A stretch of DNA of 64,000 nucleotides from an uncultured Burkholderiales bacterium. Its GTDB lineage: Bacteria; Bacteroidota; Bacteroidia; UBA8524. The DNA lies in assembly GCA_964620355.1 (NCBI GenBank), contig CAZUIT010000005.1, positions 11,507-75,506 on the forward strand. The letters run 5' to 3'. The notes below the pieces were generated by a model. That model was not told where the DNA came from and ran no database searches. It was given only the letters and a program-made list of their open reading frames with translations. Positions 6,838-53,600 of the stretch are shown here, one piece after another; the stretch's first letter is position 1; every line of letters begins with the position of its first letter. The position numbers and the translations under genes were made by a program.

Positions 6838-6844
6838 GGCCTAA

Positions 6845-7402: not shown

Positions 7403-7420
7403 TCTTCTTCCTCCTATCGA

Positions 7421-7816: not shown

Positions 7817-7867
7817 TTGTCTTTTTCTTTTAAATAATGTTTTTACTTCAAATCGATATCCAACAGA

Positions 7868-8137
7868 TTACCAGCTTGCTTTGGTTACTCCCGGGATTTT
7901 TCCATCGAGAGCCATCTGTCTGAACATATTACGGCAAACACCAAACTGACGGATATATCCGCGTGGTTTTCCTGTAATTTTACATCTGTTTCTTAATCTA
8001 ACTGGAGATGCATTTCTTGGCAACTTTTGAAGACCATCATAGTCTCCATCCGCTTTCATTTGTGCTCTCTTGTCAGCGAAATGGGCAACGAGTTTTTCTC
8101 TCTTACGTTGCCTTGCTTTCATTGATTCTTTAGCCAT
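7868..8137 (-). CDS. rpsN: 30S ribosomal protein S14
   Basis: [16 protein letters not shown].. Confidence 0.9.
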
Positions 8138-8139
8138 GC

Positions 8140-8697
8140 TTATTTGTTATCTTGGTTTTGAAACGGCATTCCAAACAATTTGAGAAGCTCAAGGCACTCA
8201 ACGTCATTTTTGGCCGAAGTCACAAAAGTAATATCCATACCGGTAATACGTGGCGTTTTATCGATGTTTATCTCAGGAAAAATAATTTGTTCCGTAACAC
8301 CCATGGTATAATTACCACGTCCGTCGAAACCTTTTACTTTCAATCCTTGGAAGTCACGAACACGTGGCAAGGAAGTAGAGATTAAACGATCTAAAAATTC
8401 ATACATACGTTCAGCACGAAGAGTCACTCTTGAACCGATTGGCATGTCTTCACGTAATTTGAAGTTAGAAATCGCTAGTCGAGATTTAGTAGGGACAGCT
8501 TTTTGTCCAGCAATCATGGTCATTTCTGACACAGCATTGTCTACCAACTTCTTATCTGCGGTTGCTGCTCCAACACCTTGATTTAAACAAATCTTAGTGA
8601 TTTTTGGAACTTCCATTACATTCTTGTAATTGAATTTTTCCATCATCGCTTGTTTGATGGAAGTTTCATATTGTTCTCTTAATCTTGGTGCGATCAT
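8140..8697 (-). CDS. rplE: 50S ribosomal protein L5
   Basis: ..[28 protein letters not shown].. Confidence 0.95.
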
Positions 8698-9005
8698 TTG
8701 ATTACCTCCCCTGATTTTTTAGAAACACGAGCCAATTTTCCTTCAACACGGTCACGTTTGATGCGGGTAGGATTTCCTTTTCCGTCAACCAACATGAGGT
8801 TTGAGATATGAATTGGTGCTTCTTTTTCGATAATTCCACCATTTGGGTTTTGAGCATTTGGTTTGGTATGGCGTTTTACCAAATTCAAACCTTCAACTTT
8901 TGCTCTTTGTTCTTTTGGGCTAACCGATAATACGCGTCCCTCTTTGCCTTTGGATTCTCCAGCAATGACTTTCACTTTATCGCCCTTTTTTATATTCAGC
9001 TTCAC
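8694..9005 (-). CDS. rplX: 50S ribosomal protein L24
   Basis: [22 protein letters not shown].., with a KOW motif. Confidence 0.9.
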
Positions 9006-35855: not shown

Positions 35856-36905
35856 CTAGGAATAATGTTCAGCATAATACGCCTGATAAGCTCCACTCGT
35901 AACTCCCTCCATCCATTCCGCATTCGCTAGATACCAGTCGATGGTTTTTTCAATTCCTTCTTCAAATTGTAGGCTAGGTTCCCAGCCGAGGTCTTGCATA
36001 ATTTTGTTGGCGTCGATGGCATAGCGGAGATCATGGCCTGCGCGGTCTGTAACATAGGTAATGAGATTCGCAGATTCACCTTCTGAGCGTTTGAGTTTTT
36101 TGTCCATAATGGCACAAACGGTATGCACAATATCGATATTCTTCCACTCATTGAACCCACCAATATTATAGGTTTCCCCTTCCACCCCATCATGAAAAAC
36201 AACATCGATGGCATGGGCATGGTCGATTACAAAAAGCCAGTCGCGAATATTTTCTCCTTTGCCATATACGGGTAAAGGTTTTTTATGGATGATATTATTG
36301 ATCATCAATGGAATCAGCTTTTCTGGAAACTGATTCGGGCCGTAATTATTTGAGCAATTGCTAATAATAATGGGCAGCTTATAGGTATTCCGGTACGCTC
36401 TTACAAAATGGTCGGAAGAAGCTTTTGACGCGGAATAAGGGGATTGCGGATCATATGGAGTATCCTCTAGAAAGAACCCTCCATCGTCCAATGAACCATA
36501 CACCTCATCGGTCGACACATGGTAAAAGCGCTTGCCTTCCATCTTGTCTTTCCAAAGTGTTTTGGCCGCGTTGAGTAAATTCACTGTCCCGATGACATTT
36601 GTCTCCACAAATTCCATTGGGTGGCTGATTGATCGGTCAACATGCGATTCTGCCGCGAGATGAATAACGTTATCGATTTGGTATTCCGTCATGATTTGCA
36701 TCATAGCAGCTCCGTCACGTATATCCGCTTTTAAGAAGCGATAATTTGGGGCGTTTTCAATATCGGTCAGGTTCGCAAGATTTCCCGCGTAAGTGAGTGC
36801 ATCTAAATTGTAAATCATGTACTCAGGGTACTTATTTACAAAGAGCCTCACCACATGGGAGCCGATAAACCCGGCTCCCCCTGTGATCAGCACATTCTTT
36901 TTCAT
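35856..36905 (-). CDS. rfbB: dTDP-glucose 4,6-dehydratase
   Basis: MKKNVLITGGAGFIGSHVV.. with the ..YSASKASSD.. catalytic motif. Confidence 0.9.
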   Translation of the reverse strand: MKKNVLITGGAGFIGSHVVRLFVNKYPEYMIYNLDALTYAGNLANLTDIENAPNYRFLKADIRDGAAMMQIMTEYQIDNVIHLAAESHVDRSISHPMEFVETNVIGTVNLLNAAKTLWKDKMEGKRFYHVSTDEVYGSLDDGGFFLEDTPYDPQSPYSASKASSDHFVRAYRNTYKLPIIISNCSNNYGPNQFPEKLIPLMINNIIHKKPLPVYGKGENIRDWLFVIDHAHAIDVVFHDGVEGETYNIGGFNEWKNIDIVHTVCAIMDKKLKRSEGESANLITYVTDRAGHDLRYAIDANKIMQDLGWEPSLQFEEGIEKTIDWYLANAEWMEGVTSGAYQAYYAEHYS

Positions 36906-37756
36906 TATCGTGTTACGGATATTAATTCTACGTCAAATATCAAAGTAGCGCCTGGAGGTATTACTCCACCGGCTCCTCTGTCGCCATAGCCCAATTTTGC
37001 AGGGACTACCAAGCGCATTTTCTCTCCTACTTGCATCAAGCGAATTCCTTCATCCCAACCTGCAATTACTTGACCTGCTCCTAAAGTGAACTTCAAGGGT
37101 GTTCCTCTTGGAATGCTTGAGTCAACCATGGTACCGTCTTCAAGGTATAAAGTATATTCAACCTCTGCCGTCATGTTCGCATATGCTTGCTCACCGTCAG
37201 GGTTTTCTACTACCATTACATATTTCAAACCGCTCGGAGTAGACTCTACCTTTTTGCCTTCGATATCAAAAGGAACTGGTTGTTTTACTTCTACCACTTC
37301 CACCAATTCAACGTCGAAATAGAGGGTCGAATTAGCTGGGATAGTTCCCATATCACGTTCTCCATATCCAATTGATGGTGGAATAATCAAGGTTGCTTTA
37401 TCGCCTACTCGCATCATTGCAATACCTTCATCCCATCCTTTGATTACCTGTCCTTGTCCTAAAGGAAATGCAATCGGTTCACCTCTTTTCACGGAGTTAT
37501 CGAACTCAGTTCCGTCTTCAAGTTTCCCAACGTAATGTACTTTTACCACATTGCCTGCAACTGCTTGTTCTCCTTCGCCTCTTTCACTGAATATTACTTT
37601 CAGTCCTGAAGCTGTTGTAATTGTGTCTTCTGTTGTCATATTTTCGTTTGTATTCGTTTCGGCCTTTACCGAGGTTTCATTCGAGCAAGATAAAAATGCG
37701 AAGAGCACCAGTCCTGCAAGCAAAATGTTTGTTCTTTTCATGAGTTTAAAAGTCAT
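36905..37756 (-). CDS. FKBP-type peptidyl-prolyl cis-trans isomerase lipoprotein with two FKBP domains (the ORF extends to 37822)
   Basis: ..GDKATLIIPPSIGYG.. and ..MRLVVPAKLGYGDRGAGGVIPPGATLIFDVEL.. Lipobox LSCS. Confidence 0.85.
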   Translation of the reverse strand: MTFKLMKRTNILLAGLVLFAFLSCSNETSVKAETNTNENMTTEDTITTASGLKVIFSERGEGEQAVAGNVVKVHYVGKLEDGTEFDNSVKRGEPIAFPLGQGQVIKGWDEGIAMMRVGDKATLIIPPSIGYGERDMGTIPANSTLYFDVELVEVVEVKQPVPFDIEGKKVESTPSGLKYVMVVENPDGEQAYANMTAEVEYTLYLEDGTMVDSSIPRGTPLKFTLGAGQVIAGWDEGIRLMQVGEKMRLVVPAKLGYGDRGAGGVIPPGATLIFDVELISVTR

Positions 37757-37757
37757 A

Positions 37758-38774
37758 TTAATGGTCCGCAAGATACTTTTTATATTCTGGAAGCGTGCGT
37801 TTGAATCGAGCAACGGCCTCATCTAAAGTTTCAGTTGATTGTCCACCAGCCGCGTTAAAATGTCCACCTCCTTTGAAATGGTCGCGTGAAAACTCATTGC
37901 AGGGAAAATGTCCTGAGCCTCTGAATGAGATCTTCACCAATTTTGTACGATCGATAAATAGCGCAGAAAACTCCACCCCGCGAATGCTTAAGCCATAATT
38001 CACCAAACCTTCGGTATCTCCGGTTTGAATTTTATAGCGCACCAACTCTTCTGGCGTTACGGACATCACGGCTGTTTTGAGCTCCGGGATAACCTCCAGC
38101 TTATGAGCCAAGCAATGACCAATAAATTGCAGTCTATCGAAAGAGAAATTATCATGAACCCGCTGATGGATATCCGATACCTGAGCTCCCTTTTCTATTA
38201 AAGTAGCAACTGTGCGATGGGTATGCGGAGTAACTGAGTCGAAACGAAAAGACCCCGTATCGGTCATGATACCGGTATACAGGCAGGTAGCGATATCTGC
38301 ATCAATTGCTTCTTCGCCTTTCCACATCACAATAATTTCATGGATGAGCTGCGCGGTTGAAGTGGTTTGTGTGGTCCAATAGCGAAAATCATCAAAGCCT
38401 TCAGGTTCCTGATGATGATCCACCATGATCGTTTTTGCCTTGGCAGCACGAATAAGGTCGCCGAGTTGATTGATACGGTGTAGCGCATTAAAGTCGAGGC
38501 AGAACACATAATCAGCCTGATCAACGAGTTCTTTTGACTTGCTATACGCTTGTTCAAAATTTATTACATGCTCCTGATTGGGCATCCATTGAAGGTGTGC
38601 GCCATAGTCGGTAGGACTCACCACGGTTGCATCAAACCCCTGGTTTCTAAGGAATTTCCACAGTCCAAGTGAGGAGCCTAAGGCATCGCCATCCGGTTTA
38701 TGATGCGTGGTAATAAGTATACGTGCCTTCGGTTCTTGATCGAGAAGGGTAAAAAGATCTTTGATATCCTGCAA
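37758..38774 (-). CDS. nrnA: DHH-family phosphoesterase (NrnA-like bifunctional oligoribonuclease/pAp phosphatase)
   Basis: ..ITTHHKPDGDALGS.. DHH motif and a DHHA1-like C-terminus. Confidence 0.8.
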   Translation of the reverse strand: MQDIKDLFTLLDQEPKARILITTHHKPDGDALGSSLGLWKFLRNQGFDATVVSPTDYGAHLQWMPNQEHVINFEQAYSKSKELVDQADYVFCLDFNALHRINQLGDLIRAAKAKTIMVDHHQEPEGFDDFRYWTTQTTSTAQLIHEIIVMWKGEEAIDADIATCLYTGIMTDTGSFRFDSVTPHTHRTVATLIEKGAQVSDIHQRVHDNFSFDRLQFIGHCLAHKLEVIPELKTAVMSVTPEELVRYKIQTGDTEGLVNYGLSIRGVEFSALFIDRTKLVKISFRGSGHFPCNEFSRDHFKGGGHFNAAGGQSTETLDEAVARFKRTLPEYKKYLADH

Positions 38775-38849: not shown

Positions 38850-39269
38850 ATGTCAGGCAATATCACCTTTACGATGATTAAACCAGATGCCGTAAAAAAC
38901 GGTTATACTGGAAAAATTTTAGACCTAATTATCAGCAATGGCTTTACGCTACGCGGAATGAAATACATCCACTTAAGCGAGGAGAAAGCTGGCGAATTTT
39001 ATGCCGTGCACAAAGAGCGTCCATTTTATAAAGACTTGGTTAGTTTCATGAGTTCAGGGCCAATCGTTGCTGCAATATTGGAAAAAGACAATGCAGTTGC
39101 TGATTTCCGTACTTTAATTGGCGCGACCAACCCAGCAGAAGCTGCTCCGGGCACCATTCGTAATCTGTATGCTAAATCTATTGATGCTAATGCGGTTCAT
39201 GGATCAGACAGCGATGAGAATGCCGCTATCGAAGCTTCTTTCTTCTTTTCCGCTTTCGAGCGTTTCTAA
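38850..39269 (+). CDS. ndk: Nucleoside-diphosphate kinase
   Basis: ..FTMIKPDAV.. ..GATNP..; 139 aa. Confidence 0.9.
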
Positions 39270-39286
39270 GACGAAAAAATAATTAA

Positions 39287-39323
39287 TAAAAAAAGCCATC
39301 CCGCAAGGAGATGGCTTTTTTTA
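39287..39323. terminator. Bidirectional rho-independent terminator between ndk (+) and the cyclophilin gene (-)
   Basis: A7 - agccatc - ccgcaagga - gatggct - T7. Confidence 0.7.
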
Positions 39324-39339
39324 TGCAATGAGTTAAATG

Positions 39340-39996
39340 CTATTTTGGAATTGTAAATCCATACTCGGCCAAAACTTCAGCTTCTGTATCGTAAGCAATT
39401 ACCTTCATGGTCATTTTAAGGTCAGTAAGTGGTCTTCCATTTTGGTCGAATGGCACAGACATAATTTTGCCAGAATTTTCCATTCCTTTAATCACTTTTC
39501 CAAATACGGTATAGCCACCATCTAAACCGGCAGTTTTATCTTTATTCAAACAGATATAGAACTGAGATCCGCTTGAGCGTTTTTCTGGATTATTGTCTCG
39601 CGCAGCGCCAATCATTCCAACATCATGCTTCAAGTTTGCATTAATTTCAGCTGGGATTGTGTATCCTGGACCACCTTGTCCATCATTTTTCGGATCTGAA
39701 TCCTTACTATTTGGGTCTCCTCCTTGCATCACAAACTGGGTCACCAATCGGTGAAATGTTGTGCCATCATAGAAACCTTCTTTCGCTAGCTTTAGAAAAT
39801 TCGCCTTATGAAGTGGCGTTTCATCATACAACCAGATATAAAAATTCCCATGAATTGTGCTCAGCTCAACTACCTCATATTTTGTAGCTGGTGTTGCGCC
39901 ACCGCCATTGCTGGTGTCTTCGTCTTTTTTGCAAGAGCTAACAATCACGAGACTGCAAAGCATCAAGGCAAATAAATAGGTTCTCTTCATAGGCAC
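39340..39996 (-). CDS. Cyclophilin-type peptidyl-prolyl isomerase, lipoprotein
   Basis: ..FHRLVTQFVMQGGDP.. and a lipobox ..VIVSSC... Confidence 0.85.
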   Translation of the reverse strand: MPMKRTYLFALMLCSLVIVSSCKKDEDTSNGGGATPATKYEVVELSTIHGNFYIWLYDETPLHKANFLKLAKEGFYDGTTFHRLVTQFVMQGGDPNSKDSDPKNDGQGGPGYTIPAEINANLKHDVGMIGAARDNNPEKRSSGSQFYICLNKDKTAGLDGGYTVFGKVIKGMENSGKIMSVPFDQNGRPLTDLKMTMKVIAYDTEAEVLAEYGFTIPK

Positions 39997-40069: not shown

Positions 40070-41827
40070 CTATTTCTCAAAAATCTGTCCTTCGGTAAGC
40101 ATAACAGTCTTGATTGACTGACTTTGATTATCGTAGTAAATAAAACTTCCTGAGAATAATACTTTATAAGGGTTTCTATTGATTACCACTACATCTAAAT
40201 TATCAACCGACACCCGTTCTCTCCCTTCCACTTGAATTGCGCCGTATCCATTATTCTCAAATAATTTAATGGAAAATTGATTGCTAGAACCCCAAGCTCC
40301 ATCTTTATAGAAATTCAAAAGAAACTCATTATTAAAGCTGAAATCCAAGGCAGCCTTCCCTCCTCTAAAACTCAGAATTGAATCCGTTTCAACAATTTTT
40401 TTCAAGCCTTTTATATCATACGACACCCCATCAAGCTTGAAGCTAATGGAGAAATCATCCTCGGTATCGGTATTCGAACAAAGAGAAAGATCTTCAATCG
40501 CTATGGTTTTGCTTGTTATGGTAAATTCCTGGGTAGGGGAAGATTCTCCATTCAGATAAATTGCCCGAATACGAAATTCCTTACCTTCCACATAGGGAAG
40601 TTCTATGGAATACTTTCCATCTTTAATTGGATATAAAAACCAATCATTCACCACTACAGTACCCCTGTCCACATTAGTCCCAAGGCATCCTTTTACTGAA
40701 CCAGAAATAACCGCTGGATGAGGGATTTTCACATCAAAAGAATGTACAACCTTCTCCTCAGAGTTGGTTTGAAACGGTATGTTGGCTACTCGGATTCCGT
40801 CAAACCAGAATTCAAATTGGAGATTTTCATTCGATGGAATGAGTCCGCCAAATTTTCCATGATCCGTCGATTTTACAGTGCGAACATCACCATTCGGACG
40901 AATAATCTTAATATCAAACCCACCTATAGGGGTGGTTCCTGAAACGATCGAGGCATCAAGTCGTGTTAAATCAAAAGGCACATCCCAGTTCCAAGTTGAA
41001 AAATGACTGACTTCTCCGATATATGTGTCATTTACCAGTTTGGCCTCCCCTTCTTGTCCCCAAATTCCTTTGCCTTCTTCAAAATGCCAGAGTGGGATTG
41101 TAAGCGGGGCACGGTGTAATATAGATGCAGGCACTTTTAGCTTAACGGTCGCAGGATTTCCTTCGGCCATTTCTAATTTCTCGCCAGATTCAGACTCTAG
41201 CTCCACGGCAATCATACCATAGGTTTCTAAAAGTCGCTCTCCATCATCATTCGCTCCTCTTAAATCACCCGGCATAATTATACTAATATTGGGGTCTTCA
41301 GGATTGATATAATTCACGTATGCATGTACTGTCCCGTTATATGGGTTCCCATTCGCATCAATATAACCCGCACCCATTTGAATCAAAGCTTTTCCTGTTC
41401 CAATCAATGCTCCTGAATTTGACTCAAAAGTTTGTGGAGAGCCTTTGCTTACCAACATAATTTCAAAACGATTGATACCCGCTTGAGGAATGAAGCTCCG
41501 TGATCCGGCAAAATATCCTTCTTTTTTTGCTTTTATATAGGCAAGCTCCTTATAGGCATCTCCTTGTGCGATTTGTACAAGCCCTTTTGCATCCGTTCTA
41601 TAGGTCTTCCCTTCTAAACTCACTTCAACCCCTTCTATTGGAGTCCCGTGCTCGTTTGTAATTTTTCCAAATGCATCCACTTTTACCGATGCCCCTTTTT
41701 CGATTTCATAAGGTGTTGAATTACCTGTTGGATCTGGCACATCATTCCATTTATGTGGCGTTTCTTTTTGACATTGAGTAAGAACTATTCCGAAAGCGAA
41801 GAGGCAAAGCAGGGATAACTTTTTCAT
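40070..41827 (-). CDS. Lipoprotein of unknown function (paralog 1) with a CarboxypepD_reg-like N-terminal domain
   Basis: Signal peptide + LTQC lipobox. It shares ..TIPLWHF.. and ..SHFSTWNWD.. motifs with the 42014-43795 product. Confidence 0.6.
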   Translation of the reverse strand: MKKLSLLCLFAFGIVLTQCQKETPHKWNDVPDPTGNSTPYEIEKGASVKVDAFGKITNEHGTPIEGVEVSLEGKTYRTDAKGLVQIAQGDAYKELAYIKAKKEGYFAGSRSFIPQAGINRFEIMLVSKGSPQTFESNSGALIGTGKALIQMGAGYIDANGNPYNGTVHAYVNYINPEDPNISIIMPGDLRGANDDGERLLETYGMIAVELESESGEKLEMAEGNPATVKLKVPASILHRAPLTIPLWHFEEGKGIWGQEGEAKLVNDTYIGEVSHFSTWNWDVPFDLTRLDASIVSGTTPIGGFDIKIIRPNGDVRTVKSTDHGKFGGLIPSNENLQFEFWFDGIRVANIPFQTNSEEKVVHSFDVKIPHPAVISGSVKGCLGTNVDRGTVVVNDWFLYPIKDGKYSIELPYVEGKEFRIRAIYLNGESSPTQEFTITSKTIAIEDLSLCSNTDTEDDFSISFKLDGVSYDIKGLKKIVETDSILSFRGGKAALDFSFNNEFLLNFYKDGAWGSSNQFSIKLFENNGYGAIQVEGRERVSVDNLDVVVINRNPYKVLFSGSFIYYDNQSQSIKTVMLTEGQIFEK

Positions 41828-41960
41828 ATGAATATTTTTAGTTAGGGAACAGGTTCAAGCAAAGGCCTACTTTCTAACATAAAGTACCTTCACTATACTA
41901 ATGACCGCTTAACAAGCGAATTGGTTGCCTCGCTTAAGCAATTTTTACCACTATTCGACT

Positions 41961-41993
41961 AAAAAAAGCCAGCAAATTATGATTACTGGCTTT
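41961..41993 (-). terminator. Rho-independent terminator after paralog 2
   Basis: Minus strand: agccag-loop-ctggct followed by T7. Confidence 0.6.
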
Positions 41994-42013
41994 CTCTACT
42001 TTAAATTTAAGTT

Positions 42014-43795
42014 TTAATTTTCAATAATTTTCCCGTTGCTGAGTTGCACATCAACATACTGGGAAGTATTCGCATTATAATATTTAAATATACCTGAGAA
42101 CTGGATGGAATATGGACTTTTACTTGAAACCGTTACATCAACATCCTGAGCATAATAAGTTCTGCCGTCGCCTAATTTAAAATCAATTATACCGTTCCCT
42201 TTACCTGTGGTTTCTCCAATCTCGAACTGACTTTTGCTTGACCAGTCGCTATCATTGTTGAACCTAACTCTAAAAGCATGATCTGTACTAAAATCTAAGG
42301 CATACATTCCACCAACAAACGAAGTAAGGCTATCTGACTCAGTTACTGCTTTTACTCCTTCGATGGAATAATTCTTCCCATCTAGACTGAATGAAAATTC
42401 AAAATCAGTGGTATTTCCATTATTCGGACATAAACCAAATACCGGAACTTCGATGAGTGCTTTGTCGATGGTAATGCTACGTGTTTGGGAAATTCCACCA
42501 TCCATGTATATCGCAGTGAGTTCAAGTGGCTTGCCCGGAATAGCCCAAGTATTAAACTCGTAACGGCCATTCACAATTCGGGATGCAATATAATTGGCTG
42601 CACTAACATACCCTGACTCCACAACGGAGCCGTTACAGCCCATTACAGTGCCGTAGATTTTTGTCAGATTGAATGCAGGAATTTCAATCTCTTTGCTCAT
42701 CGAAAGGTTATTGCCCAAATTCACTTTTTCGTGATAGATCGTTTTGCCCTGAAATAATATATACATATCCAGATCAGTATTCAGCGGCAACTGTGCCACA
42801 AAGCTTCCATCTTCATTTACATTTCCTCCCGAATGTCTACTGTCTTTACGCCGAAAATCCACATAAATGCCAGCTATCGACAAATCATTTGAACCGGTAA
42901 TCTTGCCATACAAGCGTCCTGGTGAATTCGGGATATCGTAGTTCCAGGTAGAAAAATGGCTCACCGTGCCCACATACGCGCCATTCTCTAGTTTTGCTTC
43001 TCCATCATGCATCCATATTCCTGCACTCTCATCGAAATGCCATAATGGGATGGTACTTGGCGCATCCGCTAACATAGTATTTGGAATCTGAGAAGTAATT
43101 TTTGCTGGATTTGTTTTCGCCAACTGAAGTTTTTTTCCTCCTGTACCTTCTAACTCTACAGTCAGCATGCCGTAAGTTTCAAGTACTTTTTCCCCATCGG
43201 CATCGCCGCCACGAAGCGCCCCAGGCATGATGGTTAGGATATTGGGATCATCTGGACTCAGGTGCCTTACATACGCATTTATGGTCCCAGTATATTCATT
43301 ACCGCTCGCATCCACAAAGCCATCACCTACATCTACTTTTAAGCCGCCATCATTCAGAATTGCTCCTTTATCCGCTTGAAAGACCTGAGCTGCTCCTTTG
43401 GCCAATAGTCGAATTTCAAAATGATTTACACCTTGTATCGGTATAATCGTTCTACTTCCTGGAAAAAACCCGGCTTTTTGTGCCTTAAAATAGGCAATCT
43501 CTTTGTAGGCAGAACCTTGCTTAATTTTAACCTGGCCCAAATCATTACTGGTATATACGCCCGAGCCCAGATTCACTTGAACTCCCGACAATGGGTTCCC
43601 TTGTTCATCTAGAATAATACCGAAGGCATCAATAGTGATAGATGTTCCCTTATTGATGGGGTAAGAAGTGACTTGTCCACCGCCGGTTCCGCCAGGAGAA
43701 CCATTCGGACTATTCCAAACATGGGGACTCTCTTTTTTACATTGAGTGATAAGCGCTGCAATCGCAATGAGCAGCATAAATGATACTTTTTTCAT
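42014..43795 (-). CDS. Lipoprotein of unknown function (paralog 2)
   Basis: Signal peptide + ITQC lipobox. Collinear similarity to 40070-41827 along its whole length. Confidence 0.6.
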   Translation of the reverse strand: MKKVSFMLLIAIAALITQCKKESPHVWNSPNGSPGGTGGGQVTSYPINKGTSITIDAFGIILDEQGNPLSGVQVNLGSGVYTSNDLGQVKIKQGSAYKEIAYFKAQKAGFFPGSRTIIPIQGVNHFEIRLLAKGAAQVFQADKGAILNDGGLKVDVGDGFVDASGNEYTGTINAYVRHLSPDDPNILTIMPGALRGGDADGEKVLETYGMLTVELEGTGGKKLQLAKTNPAKITSQIPNTMLADAPSTIPLWHFDESAGIWMHDGEAKLENGAYVGTVSHFSTWNYDIPNSPGRLYGKITGSNDLSIAGIYVDFRRKDSRHSGGNVNEDGSFVAQLPLNTDLDMYILFQGKTIYHEKVNLGNNLSMSKEIEIPAFNLTKIYGTVMGCNGSVVESGYVSAANYIASRIVNGRYEFNTWAIPGKPLELTAIYMDGGISQTRSITIDKALIEVPVFGLCPNNGNTTDFEFSFSLDGKNYSIEGVKAVTESDSLTSFVGGMYALDFSTDHAFRVRFNNDSDWSSKSQFEIGETTGKGNGIIDFKLGDGRTYYAQDVDVTVSSKSPYSIQFSGIFKYYNANTSQYVDVQLSNGKIIEN

Positions 43796-43953
43796 GAGGG
43801 ATATGATTAGGTTAAGAATAAATAATCGACGTCTTTGATTAGATGTAGATCTTATCCCTCTCTTGGTTGCCTAACCCAAGCATATTTCGGTAAGTCTTCG
43901 ACAAACGTACTATCTCATTCATAAAGAATGAACAAAATATTCACAAGCTGATG

Positions 43954-44547
43954 CTAGGGTGAATTTCCCTTCTCCGCAGAAATATTCGGTACTCCGCGCA
44001 GTTGCATCATGCGCTTGTACCTAAGCCACATCGGTTCTAATTCGTAGATGGGCTTGGCGAAGGATTCAATCTCGAAGGTATTTTTCATCACACGTTCATT
44101 CAAACTTCGGTACTGTTCTTTGAAGACTTCCCTTGAAATTTCATCTGCATCTGTTTGGGCTTTAAACACCGCCCAATCTTCCAATAATAAACGGGTGCTC
44201 GATTTAAAGAGCAGCTGTCTATCGAGATAATAATCGTAGGCAGTCAACATGCCTCTTAACTCATCTTCCATGCGCTGGCGGATATCCGGAAGGGTATCTT
44301 TTAGTGAAGGCAACCAAACGTTGCGGATTGTTTCCTTTCTATCAACCAATGTCTGTTCATCAATATTTAAGGCTTTCTCATTACCTTTCAGTTTGAAATA
44401 GAGTGTGTCGAGGTAGATTTTTTCCGCGGGAGTTGGCGCTTCTTTACAGGATTGCCAGAAACCCATCGCCGTTAAGAGCAGGAAAAAAAGCGCGAAGGTC
44501 TCGCCTAGATGCGTCTTTATTCTAAATTTGCCGAATCCCTGTGTCAT
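43954..44547 (-). CDS. Hypothetical protein, possible lipoprotein (start uncertain; the ORF runs to 44559)
   Basis: ORF only, with no recognised motif. Its 5' end overlaps the chrA start on the opposite strand. Confidence 0.4.
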   Translation of the reverse strand: MTQGFGKFRIKTHLGETFALFFLLLTAMGFWQSCKEAPTPAEKIYLDTLYFKLKGNEKALNIDEQTLVDRKETIRNVWLPSLKDTLPDIRQRMEDELRGMLTAYDYYLDRQLLFKSSTRLLLEDWAVFKAQTDADEISREVFKEQYRSLNERVMKNTFEIESFAKPIYELEPMWLRYKRMMQLRGVPNISAEKGNSP

Positions 44548-45743
44548 CTGTACCCTCATATTCCGTGTCGCAAATTAAGCGCTTCATTTACCTGAAGGAA
44601 ATTTTTTTCATTTCCATCACGGCATTTGGTGGACCTGGTGCACACCTCAATGCCATAATTCGGCAGTTGGTAGATAAAAGAAATTACCTCACGAAAGCGG
44701 AACTTTTAGAACTCCACTCCTTTTGTCTGATGCTTCCTGGACCTACCTCCACGCAGATGATAACAAGCTTAGGCTATCAATTGGGCGGACCACTTCTTGC
44801 CTTTAGTGCATTGCTAATTTGGGTTTTGCCAGCGACGATTTTTATGACGGCCTTTGTTCTAGCTTGGCACTTTACATCAGCTCAAAATATCCCCATGGAG
44901 TTTCTGAGTTATATTCATCCCATGGCAGTAGCCTTCATTGCTGCAGCGGCATTTAAAGTATTCTTGATGATTAAGAAAAAGACATTGTATGTCGCTCTTT
45001 ACGCAATGGGAACCTTGGGAGCTGTACTTTTTCGATCTCCTTGGATTTTTCCGGTATTATTAGGAATTGGTGCAATCGTCTCTCATAGAGCAAGTCAAGG
45101 TGAATTTCCTGCATACCGCGCGAAGATTCGACCTAACTGGAAAATATTCATTCTCTTCATCAGCATCTTGGTAGTTTCTGCCTTGGTTGGTAACATAACA
45201 CAGAGCAAACCCGTCTTACTTTTTGAAAACACGTACCAATATGGCTCCATCGTTTTTGGCGGCGGAAATGTATTGATACCGATGATGTACAAACAATATG
45301 TAACCTTTAAAAGCTATATGGGTGCTGAAGATTTTGTGCTGGGTGTTGGTTTGCTACAAGCGATTCCTGGCCCTGTGTTTAGCATTTCCACTTTTGCCAA
45401 CGGACAAGCCATGTCGGATTGGGGTATAATGGGTCAGTTGCTTGGTTGCCTCATCGGAACTGTCGGAATCTTTTTGCCGGGTATTTTGATGATATTTTTC
45501 CTCTTTCCAATATGGGATGAAATGAAAAAAATGCCTCTTGTACGAAAGGCAATTGACGGAATTACTGCCGTTTCAGCAGGCTTGGTTTTGGCTGCCGCAT
45601 TCCTGCTTTTTCAAGATGTGGAATCGAGCAGTGCTAATTTCATGGTCTTCTTTATTACCTTGCTACTGGTAATGCTGACCAAGATCCCTTCGCCAATAAT
45701 TGTAGCGGCTACTGTATTGTTTGGATTATTTTATCCTGCTTAG
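44541..45743 (+). CDS. chrA: Chromate transporter ChrA family (two-domain long form)
   Basis: ..ITAFGGPGAHLNAIIRQLVDKR.. and a repeated ..FGGG..IPMM.. half. Confidence 0.8.
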   Translation: MSSVPSYSVSQIKRFIYLKEIFFISITAFGGPGAHLNAIIRQLVDKRNYLTKAELLELHSFCLMLPGPTSTQMITSLGYQLGGPLLAFSALLIWVLPATIFMTAFVLAWHFTSAQNIPMEFLSYIHPMAVAFIAAAAFKVFLMIKKKTLYVALYAMGTLGAVLFRSPWIFPVLLGIGAIVSHRASQGEFPAYRAKIRPNWKIFILFISILVVSALVGNITQSKPVLLFENTYQYGSIVFGGGNVLIPMMYKQYVTFKSYMGAEDFVLGVGLLQAIPGPVFSISTFANGQAMSDWGIMGQLLGCLIGTVGIFLPGILMIFFLFPIWDEMKKMPLVRKAIDGITAVSAGLVLAAAFLLFQDVESSSANFMVFFITLLLVMLTKIPSPIIVAATVLFGLFYPA

Positions 45744-46872: not shown

Positions 46873-49800
46873 TCAACGAATCAGTGTGAGCGTTCCTGTA
46901 TAACGTACAGCTTCCGTATAATAGAATTGGTAATCAAAAATAACATAATAGACTCCAGCCGGCGCATGTTGTCCATTTTTCAGCATGCCGTTCCAATTAT
47001 TAACATCTACGCCTTCGCCATCCACTTCTGACTCAAAGACCAAGTCGCCCCAGCGGTTGTAGATACGAAGTTGATAAAGCGTCTCTCCCAAAATATCAAT
47101 ATCAAACGCGTCGTTTATACCCTCCGCATCTCCTGGGGTAAAAACATTTGGAATGAATAGGTTCGTCGGATATTCCAGATCTACCAGCTTACAAACCGTA
47201 TCGATGCACCCGAACTTATTGGCTGCCACCAAGCATATTTCAAACTGACCTTGGTCGGGATGGTATCGGTGCTTGGGCTCAAATTCACTAGATCTGTTTG
47301 CAACACCGGACTTTGGGTGACCAAAATCCCAACGGTAAAAAGTTGCCCCGCTGGAGAGATTGTCGAAATACTTTTCTAATGGCGTACTCCGCGGATCAAA
47401 ATCAAAATCAGCACGTAGACCCACTACCTGAATCTCCTTACTTGCACTATCAAAACAGGCTCTATCCTGAGGACCCGGAACATAGGTCGGAAAATAATCT
47501 ACCGTGTATTTACCAGTGTCATAGAAGGTATATGATGCAATCTTGCTCTGACTCCTTACAGTATCACTTCTATCCATTAGCCATGTATACTGGGTGTATT
47601 TCGAGTCGCTCTGGTCCTCCAGATTAAATGCCACATCTTGGCAAATGGTGTCAGGCATAATAAAGTTCACTGGAGGAATTGGTAGCACAATCACCTTTCT
47701 TGCAATCTGACCAGGCAAGGTGGTATCGGGGTATGTGAAAGCGCAGTATTGATTATTCTGTGTCGCTGGGTTATATACACTATCAGCACCGTATAGCTGT
47801 AAATAATAGGTTCCAGGCTGTGCATATTCAAAACGCACATTGCTATCGGTTAGCGTCGGAAAAGTAGTTTTTGCCGGGTCGCCGAAATACCAGATCCAAT
47901 TTTTCACACGTGATGAAACATTCTTAAGCTCTACTTCGAAGGGAGCACATCCGATAGAATCCGTAACAAATTCAAAGGCTGGCAATGGTCCAGCTACCTC
48001 CACAGTCTTGAAAACGGTATCCGCACAATCTCTGCTTGTATAGATGATGAGCCGTACATCGAATTTGCCAAAAGAAGAATAAAAATGGTAAGGATTCATC
48101 AAATAACTCGGCGTTGTTCCGTCGCCGAAATCCCAGTACCACGATAGAATTGCCTCATTGGAATGGGCATTTAAGTTTAATGATGAATCAAAAAACTGGA
48201 CTATCTCAGAACAAAGAATAACATCCTTGCTCTGTACACCTGCTCGATATCCCCCTATTTCTAAATTAGCTATTGCAGTATCATAGCATCCTGAACTATC
48301 GAGAGTAATCAACTCAATACGGTATTCTCCAGTATCCGTGAAGCATTTAATGGGATGACTTGCGGTATCCATCGTTCCATCGCCAAAGCTCCACCACATT
48401 TTTTCTTTCCCAGATAGCAGTCGATTTGGGTTTGTCCAATAGTAATTTGAATCTCCATAATATTGGGTCGAATCAAAAAAAGTAAGGCACTCATTTAGAC
48501 AAGGCTCTAATTCATAATCGAATTTTGCATCATGCCCAACGGAGAGGTCCTCCACCGATTCGCGTGAACATCCGCGATTATTGATGAGTGTAAGTTTGGC
48601 CGAATACTTTCCATTTTGTGTATACGTATGTTGAAAGTCTTTTTGTATGAGACTCCCCGAAACAATACTCACGGTATCCGTTGTACCATCACCCCAATCC
48701 CAAATGGCCATAACCAGTGTAGTATCACTGGTATCTGCCAAAGCAAATTCGGCATGAAATGGGGCGCAATCGTGCTTGCTATTGAGGGTAAAAAAGGGAT
48801 CGGGCTCTTCAATGATATGAATCCAATCGGAGTACCACAGGGTATCTCGACAAACTGGACCCATGGTAATTCCGGGACAATTATAGGGCTTAATAGGACC
48901 CGTTTCCAGAATCAATCCAACAGTTATAAACCCACTCGGGTTACTCAAATTATTGTATTTCCAAGTCTGCAATGAAGGGAACCATTGGGTTGAGCCAGCT
49001 GAATCTGGACGAACTTGATAATTATAGCAATTGCCTAAAACATTAAATGAAAATGTCCGATCGACGGCTTGTCCCGTACAGGCCTTGTCATTAGTATAAA
49101 AAAACTGAATGGTTTCTTTCTTAGGCGCGCCCACTTGTATGCCAAAAGTCTCTTCCCAATCACAGCCCGTAACTGTATCAATCAAAATAAGTTTGGCAGT
49201 AAAACAGGTATCGGTTAAATAGAGGTGTTTTGGGGATACGTCTTTGGAATATCGACAATTGACACCCACATTTTGTCCGGCAGCTGTATTGGTGGTGCAG
49301 CTCGGACACCATTTGTCACCAAAGTCCCAAAGCCGCTTAATCCCAACTGTACCGCGATAATCGCTATCGTCGCAGAAATAGGTGGTATCCCCTTTTACAC
49401 ATATAGAATTGTTACGTACATCTGCTTTGGCCACTGGACCCCTCACCAATACAGAATCCCATAAAAAGGTACTTATACATTTTCCACGATGGACCGTTAC
49501 GGAGATGTATTTCTTGCCCGGTTCAAAGGCACTTGTTGAAAAGGGGTTTCCTTGTCCCAATGGGTGACTGATTTGATCTAATGTGTCGCGGTAGTACCAG
49601 AAGTACTTATCTTTCATTGGGCCCTTGTCTTCGAAGGTCCAGGTAGCACCAACACAGTCGGTATACTTATCTTTAATCACATCAAACTTAATCGGACTGA
49701 GGTTGATTAAACCATTTTGTTGGAAGGTATCCGCACAGCCATTTGTTGAGCGAATAATTAATCGAGGAGAAAATGTTCCCGAATCACGGTATTCCATGCA

Positions 49801-50586
49801 GGCCCCTTTCCAGTTAGAAGAATCAATAATTCCATTACCGAAATCCCAATACCACTTGCTCATATTTGTGGAATCTGCCTGGGTAAGGTTTACCACACAT
49901 AGGGACGCTGTATCGCAGTTTCCATAAAGGTTATATCCATATAAGGCGCGTGCATCTCTCACAATGGTTATGTCGCGTTGAAACCTATTGATACAGCCTT
50001 TAATATCTGTTACTTCAACGATGATCGTATATTTACCATCTTTATTATAGCTGTGGCAAACCTGCTTATTTCCATTCGGGTTCACTGAAATATCCGCAAA
50101 TCCATCTCCAAACAAAACCACCCTTTTAACGATTCCTGACCCACTCGAACCAGGCATCGACAGATCGTCAATACAGATTTTATTCTTGCTCAAGCAAATA
50201 TTGCTCGAAGAGTTAATTGCAAAATTCGCGATGGGCAATGGGTGAGCCTGTATAACGGTAGTTGCGGTACAGGTTCCTCCCCCTGTCAAGGTAACGATGA
50301 CTTGAATATTCTTCATCCCACTGACCGTATACTTCACAAAAGGAGTTGGTTGGTTGGAGGTCTGTCCATCATCAAAATCCCAAGAATACGAAGCGATGCT
50401 GCCGGTGGTTTGAACTTGAAAGGAGATGAAATCATTCAAACAGACAACAGAATCAGTAAGAATCGTACAAGATTGTGACCTGGCCCATATGGTAAATGAA
50501 AAAAGAAATACAAGCAGGGCAATTCTTTTCAAGGCGTTCGGTTTATCTCTAAGACTGCAATTTGCAGATTTTAGTTGCCTTATCAA
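46873..50586 (-). CDS. Giant secreted PKD-repeat protein with a T9SS type-B (CHU_C / gliding-motility-associated) C-terminal domain
   Basis: Repeated ..WDFGDG.. PKD signatures and C-terminal ..NVFTPGDAEGINDAFDI..YQLRIYNRWGDLVFES... Confidence 0.75.
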   Translation of the reverse strand: MIRQLKSANCSLRDKPNALKRIALLVFLFSFTIWARSQSCTILTDSVVCLNDFISFQVQTTGSIASYSWDFDDGQTSNQPTPFVKYTVSGMKNIQVIVTLTGGGTCTATTVIQAHPLPIANFAINSSSNICLSKNKICIDDLSMPGSSGSGIVKRVVLFGDGFADISVNPNGNKQVCHSYNKDGKYTIIVEVTDIKGCINRFQRDITIVRDARALYGYNLYGNCDTASLCVVNLTQADSTNMSKWYWDFGNGIIDSSNWKGACMEYRDSGTFSPRLIIRSTNGCADTFQQNGLINLSPIKFDVIKDKYTDCVGATWTFEDKGPMKDKYFWYYRDTLDQISHPLGQGNPFSTSAFEPGKKYISVTVHRGKCISTFLWDSVLVRGPVAKADVRNNSICVKGDTTYFCDDSDYRGTVGIKRLWDFGDKWCPSCTTNTAAGQNVGVNCRYSKDVSPKHLYLTDTCFTAKLILIDTVTGCDWEETFGIQVGAPKKETIQFFYTNDKACTGQAVDRTFSFNVLGNCYNYQVRPDSAGSTQWFPSLQTWKYNNLSNPSGFITVGLILETGPIKPYNCPGITMGPVCRDTLWYSDWIHIIEEPDPFFTLNSKHDCAPFHAEFALADTSDTTLVMAIWDWGDGTTDTVSIVSGSLIQKDFQHTYTQNGKYSAKLTLINNRGCSRESVEDLSVGHDAKFDYELEPCLNECLTFFDSTQYYGDSNYYWTNPNRLLSGKEKMWWSFGDGTMDTASHPIKCFTDTGEYRIELITLDSSGCYDTAIANLEIGGYRAGVQSKDVILCSEIVQFFDSSLNLNAHSNEAILSWYWDFGDGTTPSYLMNPYHFYSSFGKFDVRLIIYTSRDCADTVFKTVEVAGPLPAFEFVTDSIGCAPFEVELKNVSSRVKNWIWYFGDPAKTTFPTLTDSNVRFEYAQPGTYYLQLYGADSVYNPATQNNQYCAFTYPDTTLPGQIARKVIVLPIPPVNFIMPDTICQDVAFNLEDQSDSKYTQYTWLMDRSDTVRSQSKIASYTFYDTGKYTVDYFPTYVPGPQDRACFDSASKEIQVVGLRADFDFDPRSTPLEKYFDNLSSGATFYRWDFGHPKSGVANRSSEFEPKHRYHPDQGQFEICLVAANKFGCIDTVCKLVDLEYPTNLFIPNVFTPGDAEGINDAFDIDILGETLYQLRIYNRWGDLVFESEVDGEGVDVNNWNGMLKNGQHAPAGVYYVIFDYQFYYTEAVRYTGTLTLIR

Positions 50587-50635: not shown

Positions 50636-53600
50636 TCAGAACGTAAGTAGCAGGCTTAACCGGGTAGTTCTTGGAGCACTATAATAACCAGGATTGGCTA
50701 ATGCAGTATTGTATAAGTCAATGAAACTTTGCGCGTTAGTAGCTGATTCAGTAGCATTGCGACCGTTTGCTGAGCTTAAATAACCATCGGTACTTGCAGA
50801 ACCTGAGTAAGAATGAACGGCTTCTCTATTTTGGATATTTAAGAAATTCTCCATCCATAAAGTCAGGGTAAAATAGCCTTCGATTGGTTGCCCTTCTCTT
50901 TTACCCAAGGTTACTGGAAAATCACGGTGAATATTCAAGTTATTCCCCAATGACCATGGCAAGCGAGATCCAAATGGTGTTCCTCTTAATGGACTTCTTG
51001 AAGCAATTCCTGACTGCGCATCCGGAGTCGCAATACTTGTAGCGGTATAAGGACGTCCAGAAAAGGCATTCAAGGTTAGTCCAACACCTGTATGCTCAAG
51101 GATTTTCTTTCCACTCACTACTGGTCCTTCATATTCTTTTCCAGCTCCGAAGTTTTGGAAGAAGATCATTTTAATATTATGGCGGACATCATAGCTCAGC
51201 GGAAAGAGGTTTCTCAAATTAGGCTGACCTGCTGATATTAACCCAGCTTGCGAACTTGTACCTGAGCCTGTGCCCTCTGCAATTTGGAAAGAATAGCTTG
51301 CATTCAACGTAAAGTGACGGCGTTGCAATTGATATTCTGCACGTAAGCCTTTGATTGTCGACAAATCTATATTTCCATAAGAAATGTATGAAACTGGATA
51401 GGCCTGGTAATAGCGCACCAACTGAATCATATTTCTTTGTTCTCTGTAAGATGCAGTTAAGCTCAGTGAAGAAGAACGAGTAAGCAATTGACGGAAGCCA
51501 ATTTCATAATCTGTGGTGATTTGTGGTTTTAAATCCGGATTATTCACCACCTTGGTTGGATTAAAACGCATGAAATAGTAATCATCCAGTGGAGTAAACA
51601 CATTGCTTGGCCTCTGGGCTAACACATCATAATAGGCAAAGAACCGTGCATCATCGCTAATCGGAAACTCTACTGAAAAACGTGGAAGCACTAAAACTTT
51701 GGCTTCATAATCCTTAAAAGATTGGCGTGTCAATTTCTCCTCACTGGCATCAACCAAAAAAGGCTGAATCGTTCCACTGGTGGTTTTTTGAGCCAATTGT
51801 CCGGGGTCTGTGATACGCAATCCATCTTCATTATACCATTCATTTCCCTTGCGGTAACCCACCACTTTTGTTGGATTTTTTACATCATTCACGTAGACCA
51901 AATAATCATTTCCAACAGTGCTCGGGTGCTTTACAGCATTTCCATTTAAAGATGAAACTTCAGAAACCTGGCGCACAGGATAAAGCGAATAGGGGTCTTT
52001 TAATACTGGAGTATTCGCATCAAAACGCTCGATACGGACGCCAAGACGGAAAATCATGTCTTTGAGTTCAATTCTGTCTTGCAAATACATAGCGGCATAA
52101 ATCGGACGAAATGCGCCAAGGCTTCTATTTTCAGGGTCGTCTAGAAACTCTGACACACCGAAATTCTTGCGTGTTTTATTTCCTAAATAGTCATAGCCGA
52201 AATAACTCACGTATTGATTATTTCCACCGCTACCGAGTAATTCTTCGGCGGTAAAAAGGTCGAGTGACAAATCATCGGGGTTCAGACCATGTACATTCAC
52301 ATAAGATTCTGGCGTAACCAATCTTCCATATTCATCGCGAACCCCCTTGTCAATCAGTGTTTGACGGAGTCTTTTAGAGAATTCTGACTGCTTATCATTG
52401 AATACTTGAGGATACGATATCGAATCCATGAATTGGCCCATCGCATTATAATGGAGGTATGGATCAGACTTGTCCAATTGCAGTCCTTCATTGGCACTTT
52501 GGTACATCAATTCCCATAGATTCATGGCATTTACCGTATAGGCACGGGAAACTCTTTGTTCAAAATACAATCCCACTTTAGCGGTATGGATGCCTTTGGT
52601 CAATTCCCCTTGTAGGTTGAGACTAAACTGTTCGGTTTGTGAGCGTCCAACACCTGAATTGATTGATGAGCCGATTAACATTGTTCCCACATTGCTCCAC
52701 ATATTTGAATAGATTCCAATTGGATTTCTTCCATTCAATACGGCGCCGCCATCGGTGCTAATCTGATTAAAATTGCTCACTTTCGGCGCTAAGTCGAAAT
52801 AGGCGCTTGAATAATTTGCCAAAAGCGGATTGGAAGTTGTGCTGCGGTCAAACGTTATCAGCGTATCGGTATAGCCTTGAAGTTCATAATAATTCTTGAT
52901 CCATACTGTGTCGCCATCAACAATAACAGGCTTGCTTCCTCCCGAAGCTCCTTCATTGCCTTGGAACTGATAAACCGGCGCACGGTAGGCGGTATACTTG
53001 CCTACATACCCATAGCGGAAATAATCATCTCCCAAGTTTGGATCTTCTGTTCTACTCCATACCCCTTGGTATTGAAGGCTCACGCTATATTTCAAACGTT
53101 TTAATTGCTTCCGTTTGATGTCTTCTTCCTTCATGGTGGCTAAGAGATTATGCTCCATGTTGATATAACTGATAGCACTCCAGCTTGTCCGAACAGGATT
53201 CGCACCACTGTTCAACAACTGGTTGCCGAAGGGAGCAATGCGCGACTGATTTCTATCGACAATGGCAGCAGCCTCAATACTCAGGTTGGTGAGGGGGCGA
53301 AATTCTATTTTTCCAAGCCACATGAAGTCTGTCGCATCGGCATTATCCTTGGCTTGTACTTTTTCTAAATCATCCTGTACAAGGAACTCGGCACTTGGCA
53401 CAAAGCCAGAACCTGATACGGATTGACGAATGGGGTTTTGTTCGATCTCTTTGAGCTTGTCGGACTTAACACGCCATACACCAATTCCGGAAGGATTAGG
53501 GTCATTTTGATAGAACAGGTTGAAATTCATGTGGTAGCCCAGAACCATTCTATCATACTCTTTGTCTTTGACCCGTTTCATGACGAGAGGTCCACCGAAG

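Follow-up and report, generated by a model that had tools for sequence, protein, structure and literature searches.

Introduction

FAM171 proteins are neuronal proteins of animals that have been implicated in cancer and in the uptake of alpha-synuclein. The ectodomain of FAM171A1 and FAM171A2 joins a carboxypeptidase-regulatory-like domain 1 to a domain 2 grouped with ZU5 (CATH 2.60.220), forms a homotrimer that is stable by way of domains 1 and 2, and has been described as a novel combination of domains that has no known relatives, with no mention of bacteria (10.1101/2025.09.18.675241). ZU5, GPS and the Nup98 domain have been unified in one superfamily of autopeptidases, which is also represented in bacterial surface proteins (Zhang et al. 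2012, PMC3482391), and microbial GAIN-like domains, denominated MAIN, cleave the F-S bond of an HFS motif into fragments that stay associated, cleavage being abolished by a Ser-to-Ala exchange and restored by Ser-to-Thr (Brogan & Rudner, 10.64898/2026.05.12.724683). This logic of cleaving and holding has been shown experimentally for the GAIN, MAIN, FIIND and Nup98 domains (for MAIN, 10.64898/2026.05.12.724683). Here we describe two adjacent lipoprotein genes, W1 (downstream, 585 amino acids (aa)) and W2 (upstream, 593 aa), on the minus strand of a 64,000-nucleotide (nt) stretch, hereafter the window, of contig CAZUIT010000005.1, from an uncultured bacterium placed in the Bacteroidota by GTDB. 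Domains 1 and 2 of their products are, on well-supported grounds, homologous to the FAM171 ectodomain, and domain 2 carries an HF[S/T] motif which we consider, on balance, a probable site of self-cleavage. A preliminary description of the locus, made from the letters of the window, overlooked that the block VSHFSTWNxD is an invariant motif of the autoproteolysis type, that the proteins are related to FAM171 and that their family has thousands of members.

Results

Two paralogous lipoproteins of a large Bacteroidota family

W1 and W2 (Table 1) are paralogues over their whole length. BLASTP aligns them from the first residue to the last with 243/596 identities (41%), 59% positives and an E-value of 4e-156, and the identity by domain (D1 to D5) is 51% in D1, 52% in D2, 16% in D3, 29% in D4 and 38% in D5, making D3-D5 the fastest-diverging part. 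The preliminary description was accurate on these points: it had called two minus-strand open reading frames of 585 and 593 aa at the same coordinates, had estimated 35-45% identity by eye over a collinear length, and had quoted shared blocks (QG.AYKE.AY.KA.K.G.F.GSR, TIPLWHF and VSHFSTWN.D), all of which are found in the alignment; nor is the similarity restricted to the N-terminal domain, the values for D3-D5 being part of an end-to-end match. The lipoboxes LTQC and ITQC that it reported are present. The signal peptide of each protein is short, basic and hydrophobic; it ends LTQ-C in W1 and ITQ-C in W2, with the lipobox cysteine at residue 19, and both proteins conform to the pattern of signal peptidase II (SPII) lipoproteins. 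This cysteine is invariant in the family alignment (122/122), and a lipobox-like pattern is found in 113 of 141 additional cluster representatives. As had also been anticipated, neither protein falls in a characterised enzyme family: a Pfam scan of W1 and W2 gave sub-threshold matches only, an NCBIfam scan gave none, and a search of PDB sequences with W1 returned matches at chance level only.

Both are members of a Bacteroidota family that is very large and uncharacterised. It consists of envelope proteins with a lipid at the N-terminus and five all-beta domains, whose current annotations read 'hypothetical', 'carboxypeptidase-like regulatory domain-containing' or 'Ig-like domain-containing'. 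A word-indexed protein search returned 167 family matches, species-representative genomes held 394 confirmed family stretches, and a search with D2 only recovered 4,896 clusters at 50% identity (3,130 of them at E≤1e-10). The members come from Flavobacteriales, Saprospiraceae, Chitinophagaceae and Sphingobacteriales, and include the genera Flavobacterium, Winogradskyella, Olleya, Mesonia, Kordia, Lacinutrix, Putridiphycobacter and Pedobacter. The commonest length is ~590 aa, and longer members add TSP3, Calx-beta, Big_1 or CHU_C (type IX secretion) domains.

An AlphaFold2 model of W1, built from the 122-sequence alignment, has a predicted local distance difference test score (pLDDT) of 91.3 and consists of five all-beta domains: D1 (residues 47-124), D2 (125-286), D3 (287-366), D4 (367-455) and D5 (456-585). 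D3 and D4 are two Ig/prealbumin-like sandwiches with conserved cysteines, those of D4 among them (C381, C413 and C450 are near-invariant in the family alignment), and are followed by the C-terminal all-beta D5. The preliminary description had assigned each protein a CarboxypepD_reg-like N-terminus. The fold is in keeping with this, Foldseek matching D1 to the regulatory domains of carboxypeptidases N and D (root-mean-square deviation (rmsd) 2.1-3.1 Å, probability 1.0), with the regulatory domain of carboxypeptidase M and the SusC NTE domain also among the fold-search matches, and so is the homologue P0018, which scores 34.3 bits against PF13620; W1 (22 bits) and W2 (16.5 bits) themselves stay below the cut-off of 32.3. 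With the full W1 model as query, Foldseek found only generic multi-sandwich matches in the PDB (pilins, teneurins and adhesins, rmsd 15-30 Å); with the N-terminal module it found only matches of the domain-1 type, and FAM171 entries were absent from both searches.

Homology to the FAM171 ectodomain

The relationship to FAM171 emerges from sequence profiles. The Pfam model of the FAM171A1/A2/B N-terminal region, PF10577, matches W1 with 15.8 bits (E 0.009) and W2 with 17.0 bits (E 0.004); the best homologue, P0026, reaches 30.5 bits, below the gathering threshold of 31.2. One homologue's match covers profile positions 35-230, and precomputed PF10577 matches are present in 38 of 120 homologues. 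A profile of the family, compared with the PDB, matches the FAM171A2 chain 9y6n_A. We therefore aligned bacterial D1-D2 by hhalign with FAM171A1 and FAM171A2, taking all comparison chains from the PDB sequence file (FAM171A1 9y63_A, FAM171A2 9y6n_A, UNC5B ZU5 3g5b_A, and Nup98). The local alignment has a probability of 94.6%, an E-value of 7e-8 and a score of 57.5 over 194 collinear columns, and the global one spans 240 columns, whereas 60 column shuffles score 14.1±1.9 (maximum 19.3) and the reversed sequence 19.0. Because the score lies far above those of the shuffles, we regard the homology of W1/W2 domains 1-2 to the animal FAM171A1/A2 ectodomain as well supported in spite of the Pfam threshold. 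The family thus lies outside PF10577 as Pfam delimits it and does not have the FAM171 topology, yet it is a demonstrable homologue of the FAM171 ectodomain. A separate AlphaFold2 model of W1 residues 40-290 (pLDDT 95.8, predicted template modelling score 0.90) folds as two sandwiches. A link between bacteria and FAM171 was not found in the searchable literature.

An invariant HF[S/T] motif

The invariant or near-invariant positions of D2 fall in the blocks MPG.L, TYGM.AVEL, IPLW.F[DE]E..G.W.EEG.A and V-S-H-F-[S/T]-x-W-N-x-D. In the 122-sequence alignment His275, Trp279 and Asn280 (W1 numbering) are present in 122/122 and Phe276 in 121/122, and position 277 is Ser in 109 and Thr in 13, with no other residue. 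All 141 additional cluster representatives carry the motif (HFS in 126, HFT in 15), so that Ser or Thr occupies the nucleophile position in 263/263 proteins, and never Ala, Gly, Cys or Asn. The motif also occurs at 88/88 genome loci, a set made up of pattern retrievals (IPLWHF[DEN]E and IMPG[AD]LRG) and of eight loci fetched earlier via protein look-ups.

In both models, secondary structure assigned by DSSP places S274-H275-F276-S277 in a 4-residue turn that links the final two D2 strands (268-273 and 278-285). When aligned by hhalign, the bacterial H-F-S falls on Q-L-G of FAM171, and the UNC5B ZU5 domain (3g5b_A) likewise has Q-L-G there. In UNC5B this leucine, Leu-677, corresponds to the Phe that is buried at the cleavage sites SF-S of CARD8 and HF-S of PIDD (D'Osualdo et al., PMC3210808); it belongs to a loop found where the ZU5 sandwich has its C-terminal edge, with a long strand following directly (PMC3210808). 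Human Nup98 has the identical pentapeptide, VSHFS, as its cleavage site. In addition, the supplementary tables of the MAIN preprint list, in their accessible part, Bacteroidota proteins with the order prealbumin-like, ZU5 or GPS, TTR, CarboxypepD_reg and Myco_19_kDa, and record 11 occurrences of PF10577 among the Pfam domains that accompany MAIN (10.64898/2026.05.12.724683); the five-domain order of these entries is the order found in the W1/W2 family. Since hhalign against UNC5B was negative (see below), the assignment of D2 to ZU5/GPS is a transitive one, made via FAM171 and third-party DPAM labels.

Predicted self-cleavage and its alternatives

The gene structure, the paralogy, the lipobox, the fold model, the FAM171 homology, the position and conservation of the motif and the synteny are established, and they suggest a mechanism by analogy with the systems mentioned above. 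We judge it somewhat probable that the HF[S/T] of D2 is a cis-autoproteolytic site, at which W1 and W2 would cleave their own F-S bond to leave a lipid-anchored N-fragment and a releasable C-fragment. The hydroxyl of Ser277 (W1) or Ser282 (W2) would attack the carbonyl of the preceding Phe, with help from the His and from the strain that the buried Phe imposes; an N-to-O acyl shift would generate an ester, and its hydrolysis would cut the chain between F276 and S277 in W1 and between F281 and S282 in W2. The anchored N-fragment, Cys19-Phe276 in W1 (258 aa) and Cys19-Phe281 in W2 (263 aa), would keep D1 and most of D2, and the C-fragment (309 aa in W1, 312 aa in W2) would begin with S-T-W-N-W/Y-D. 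Its first strand (TWNWDVPF) would stay in the D2 sandwich, so that the fragments would remain non-covalently joined until pulled apart, and on dislodging, D3-D5 would be shed from the cell envelope.

Several points weigh against this proposal: (i) FAM171A1 and FAM171A2, the only homologues with solved structures, do not have the motif, and no cleavage has been reported for them; the fold can, as FAM171 shows, function without cleavage. (ii) The W-N-x-D part of the motif is invariant beyond what known HFS sites need, and may mark a binding or structural role instead. (iii) hhalign detected no signal between D2 and the UNC5B ZU5 domain, and with Nup98 it aligned only the 16-residue motif, at a probability of 7.5%. 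(iv) The accessions of named homologues have no match in the accessible part of the MAIN supplementary tables. (v) Surface exposure is uncertain for W1 (QKET) and W2 (KKES), to judge from the residues that follow the lipobox cysteine. (vi) F-S cleavage of the family is a prediction from the motif, the fold model and analogy.

The first two points, the stable trimers that FAM171 forms through domains 1 and 2, and the lack of any sequence-level match of W1/W2 to ZU5, GPS or GAIN models would also suit a different explanation, namely that the proteins are intact, uncleaved lipoproteins in which HF[S/T]xWNxD is a structural or ligand-binding element of D2, with a binding or scaffold role and perhaps oligomeric like trimeric FAM171. 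This is a serious explanation which we nevertheless hold to be unlikely. A position that is always Ser or Thr marks a nucleophile; PIDD, CARD8, GAIN and MAIN are cut at exactly this place, in the turn that precedes the last strand; and the QLG of FAM171 indicates that the fold itself needs no H, F or S.

Self-cleavage would apply to both paralogues. The faster divergence of D3-D5 than of D1-D2 suggests, as far as sequence comparison goes, that the two carry passengers of different specificity, which fits W1 and W2 being two versions of one device.

Copy history and selection

The two genes have different histories. W2 has orthologues in P0006 (80% identity) and P0005 (61%), and the best database match for W1 reaches 47%; neither W1 nor W2 itself is present in the protein collection searched. 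The position of W2, between a small lipoprotein gene and the peptidyl-prolyl isomerase (PPIase)/NDK genes, is the same in ten related contigs (L001-L005 and L007-L011), that is, in every related contig showing the downstream flank, and in all of them the family gene is single-copy. The conserved order runs from a TonB-dependent-receptor-like gene through a PKD/CHU_C gene, DivIC, a small CarboxypepD_reg protein, a chromate transporter and a ~190-aa lipoprotein to the family gene, and continues with cyclophilin, NDK, a DHH protein and FKBP. The contig with the closest W2 orthologue (80%; L006, JGI 3300022687, contig Ga0248671_10300) stops 120 nt past the gene, too short downstream to show the presence or absence of a second copy of the W1 type. 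In a neighbour-joining tree W2 lies within the syntenic clade, and W1 lies outside it on a separate deep branch together with P0003 (46% identity, on a 2.2-kb contig); the tree is weakly supported, with 68% bootstrap for the placement of W1 + P0003 and 15-25% along the backbone. From the single-copy synteny and the positions in the tree we read W2 as the ancestral syntenic gene and W1 as an old additional copy, a deep branch and not a recent variant. As a pair, the two genes reflect nothing more unusual than the duplication, long ago, of a conserved gene; the interest lies in the family.

This history bears on the view, taken up from the preliminary description, that the two genes are a duplicated, diverging pair of surface lipoproteins whose variable functions, as an adhesin, a receptor or a phage target, are shaped by diversifying selection. 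Part of the evidence is in keeping with it: D3-D5 have diverged to 16-38% identity between W1 and W2 as against 51-52% in D1-D2, family members carry adhesin-type domains (TSP3, Calx-beta), and adjacent paralogues on the same strand recur at 10 of the 88 family loci. The other observations argue against it. Between W2 and P0006 the ratio of nonsynonymous to synonymous substitution rates (dN/dS) is ~0.10, with 0.04-0.16 for every domain, rough values because dS (~1.1) is near saturation; repeats of the phase-variation or invertible type were looked for at the locus and none was found; and W2 is single-copy and strictly syntenic where the downstream flank can be seen, with W1 on its deep branch. 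We therefore consider a diversifying pair quite improbable.

Among the loci with adjacent paralogues, two from Flavobacterium metagenome-assembled genomes (L028, positions 5914-8921, and L013) have a 378-aa paralogue directly upstream of a full-length 597-aa copy; the shorter one is truncated to D1-D2-D3 and has the motif HFTWWNND.

Possible surface exposure

Bacteroidota lipoproteins are exported to the surface by a signal of the form C-X-K-(D/E)2, or by net negative charge at positions +2 to +6 (Lauber et al. 2016, PMC5080379). Like such surface lipoproteins, W1 and W2 have an SPII lipobox and a Lys at +3 followed by an acidic residue; unlike them, their signal is incomplete, C-QKET and C-KKES having one acidic residue each and no net negative charge. 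Full matches are found in the orthologues P0002, P0004 and L009 (KKED or KKEE), and other family members have EKDN, SEDD or EDDN after the lipobox cysteine. Given the full export signals of orthologues, the type IX domains of relatives and the conserved cysteines of D4, we find surface exposure plausible. PF13585 (CHU_C / Por secretion) has no match in W1 or W2 and is present in longer relatives such as P0045.

Five of these relatives (P0037, P0045, P0047, P0052 and P0098) combine an N-terminal lipobox (...SSC-EDDN) with a C-terminal CHU_C type IX secretion domain, an odd pairing of two anchoring or export signals, a conflict that self-cleavage at HFS could resolve.

Transcription signals and gene neighbourhood

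The preliminary description had each gene separately terminated. This is right for W2, which is followed by a strong intrinsic-terminator-like hairpin (folding free energy -20.4 kcal/mol, z -4.85; equal folding in 0 of 200 shuffles). A terminator after W1 was rejected, as the 73 nt between W1 and the next gene hold no terminator-like structure (folding free energy -5.6, z +1.5); W1 transcription may therefore read into the cyclophilin lipoprotein gene at 39340..39996.

Upstream, W1, W2 and their syntenic orthologues (loci L001, L004, L006, L007, L009 and L010) have in common an element of ~40 nt, located 70-120 nt before the start codon. Its layout is GTCGAA, ~12 nt, AAAWTTGCTTA, 5 nt, AGGCAACCAA, ~17 nt and TCAT, with a GCAAC core that is invariant in 8/8 copies. 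Outside it the upstream regions of W1 and W2 have no overall homology, and within it there is neither an Rfam match nor a conserved hairpin. The element looks like a two-block promoter or operator. Because both paralogues carry it, the duplicated unit would have contained it, and its presence before both genes suggests that W1 and W2 are co-regulated.

The neighbourhood speaks to yet another explanation, in which W1 and W2 are outer-membrane lipoproteins facing the periplasm, with a housekeeping role in the envelope, and any cleavage is maturation and not release. The neighbours are housekeeping genes, with no terminator intervening before the cyclophilin lipoprotein gene, the export signals of W1 and W2 are incomplete, and the purifying selection is strong. 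A functional operon with these neighbours was rejected, however, since the synteny holds in the close clade only and is missing at 77 distant loci; moreover, orthologues with the full K-(D/E)2 signal exist, and relatives join the same module to type IX secretion and extracellular adhesion domains. A periplasmic housekeeping role seems to us very improbable.

Directly upstream of W2 lies the gene of a 201-aa predicted lipoprotein (43954-44559, minus strand; lipobox WQSC), apparently helical and without a Pfam family, which precedes the family gene throughout the close clade (L001-L011) and is absent at the 77 distant loci. Further upstream, two adjacent minus-strand genes (46873-50586 and 50636-54355), whose pairing is conserved in related contigs, encode products of ~1,240 aa each, one with multiple PKD domains and a CHU_C type IX secretion domain, the other with CarboxypepD_reg and a TonB-dependent-receptor-like barrel. 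On the other side, a hairpin at 39264-39362, between the convergent NDK (plus) and cyclophilin (minus) genes, is probably a bidirectional terminator; it gives weak, spurious Rfam 'Thr/Phe leader' matches on both strands, and an Rfam scan of 39-45 kb of the window found only such spurious leader matches, on terminator hairpins. The DHH-family open reading frame (37758..38774) and that of FKBP (36905..37822) overlap by 65 nt (37758-37822) at the mechanically chosen FKBP start. Because the FKBP gene is shorter in related contigs (273-282 aa), its true start is probably further downstream.

Table 1. Features of the W1/W2 locus, in positions of the window
Feature	Position	Strand	Basis or remark
W1, 585-aa paralogous lipoprotein gene	40070..41827	-	open reading frame; extra copy flanked by W2 and the cyclophilin gene
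W1 signal peptide and lipobox, MKKLSLLCLFAFGIVLTQ followed by C; +2 to +5 QKET	41771..41827	-	sequence
W1 domain 1 (47-124), prealbumin / carboxypeptidase-regulatory-like beta-sandwich	41456..41689	-	DSSP, PF13620 (E 2e-4), Foldseek
W1 domain 2 (125-286), FAM171-domain-2-like / ZU5/GPS-superfamily-like beta-sandwich	40970..41455	-	model, PF10577, hhalign
W1 motif H275-F276-S277-T-W-N-W-D282, predicted scissile bond F276-S277	40982..41005	-	conservation, model
W1 domains 3-5 (287-585)	40073..40969	-	DSSP; predicted releasable fragment
Conserved upstream element of W1 (GTCGAA ... AAATTGCTTAAGCGAGGCAACCAA)	41921..41960	-	direct repeat D3
Intrinsic-terminator-like hairpin after W2	41958..42000	-	16-bp stem, A-run before, U-run after
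W2, 593-aa lipoprotein gene	42014..43795	-	open reading frame; its orthologue is single-copy in related genomes
W2 signal peptide and lipobox, MKKVSFMLLIAIAALITQ followed by C; +2 to +5 KKES	43739..43795	-	sequence
W2 domains 1-2 (~52-291), FAM171-like module	42923..43642	-	alignment to W1; PF10577 (E 0.004), PF13620 (E 0.011)
W2 motif H280-F281-S282-T-W-N-Y-D287, predicted scissile bond F281-S282	42935..42958	-	alignment to W1
Conserved upstream element of W2 (GTCGAA ... AAATATGCTTGGGTTAGGCAACCAA)	43863..43902	-	partner of direct repeat D3

Discussion

We infer cleavage, surface exposure, release and a ligand for D3-D5. If this is true, thousands of Bacteroidota 'hypothetical lipoproteins' would become a defined class of self-cleaving, lipid-anchored envelope proteins that use the GAIN/ZU5 principle with the anchor at the opposite end, and the microbial devices for autoproteolytic release would be extended to the outer membranes of Gram-negative bacteria. 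The FAM171 ectodomain, for its part, gains a large set of bacterial homologues and with it deep alignments for work on structure and function.

The homology also raises the evolutionary hypothesis that the animal FAM171 domain descends from an autoproteolytic one. In a wider scenario, which we offer tentatively and hold to be rather doubtful as a whole, the bacterial family would represent the FAM171 ectodomain in prokaryotes and might be its source; it would have retained the ancestral HF-S cleavage, and FAM171 would be derived, having lost it. In such a scenario the bacterial proteins would work as GAIN/MAIN devices of reversed topology, releasing their C-terminal binding module from the outer membrane, and W1 and W2 would be two co-regulated devices with different passengers.

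Compared with the FAM171A1/A2/B ectodomain, the bacterial proteins have the same two-domain module in the same order, with shared blocks that include IP.W.FD...G.W., and in both cases the module is anchored to a membrane and exposed on the side away from the cytoplasm. The differences are as follows: (i) FAM171 proteins are type-I transmembrane proteins with a C-terminal transmembrane helix and a long cytoplasmic tail, whereas the bacterial anchor is an N-terminal lipid. (ii) FAM171 lacks domains 3-5, and the bacterial proteins, which have no later transmembrane helix, have these three further beta domains instead. (iii) In place of the bacterial HFS, FAM171 has QLG, and hence no nucleophile.

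The ZU5 domains of PIDD, UNC5CL and the NLRP1/CARD8 FIIND resemble D2 in having HF-S or SF-S at the C-terminal edge of the sandwich, before a long strand and with the Phe buried (PMC3210808); by way of the QLG of FAM171 and UNC5B, the PIDD/CARD8 site and the bacterial HFS occupy the same aligned position. Unlike W1 and W2, these are cytosolic signalling proteins of eukaryotes in which UPA and a death-fold domain come after ZU5. The autoproteolytic domain of Nup98 has the identical VSHFS at its scissile site and is otherwise different in overall domain and biology, only the motif region being alignable.

The closest parallel is with MAIN (10.64898/2026.05.12.724683) and the ZU5-GPS-Nup98 group (PMC3482391), which share with the family a beta-sandwich and an H-hydrophobic-S/T motif in the turn before the last strand. 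In MAIN, as predicted here, cleavage proceeds by an N-to-O acyl shift, the cleaved strand is embedded, the protein is anchored in the envelope and Ig-like or adhesion domains are attached; the accessible part of the MAIN tables also holds Bacteroidota proteins of equivalent architecture, with domain 2 labelled ZU5 or GPS. MAIN proteins, however, are typically large (mean 158 kDa) and Gram-positive, with N-terminal passengers and a C-terminal sortase or SLH anchor, whereas W1 and W2, of 64 kDa, have the lipid anchor at the N-terminus, the autoproteolytic domain second and the passenger at the C-terminus, so that the order is reversed. The main text of the MAIN preprint makes no mention of lipoproteins, and the domains that the preprint reports as tested include none from a Bacteroidota protein (10.64898/2026.05.12.724683). 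Taken together, these similarities and divergences lead us to conclude that the W1/W2 family probably works like the ZU5/GPS/MAIN autoproteolytic superfamily and belongs there, differing from its described members in the N-terminal lipid anchor, the small size and the Gram-negative setting.

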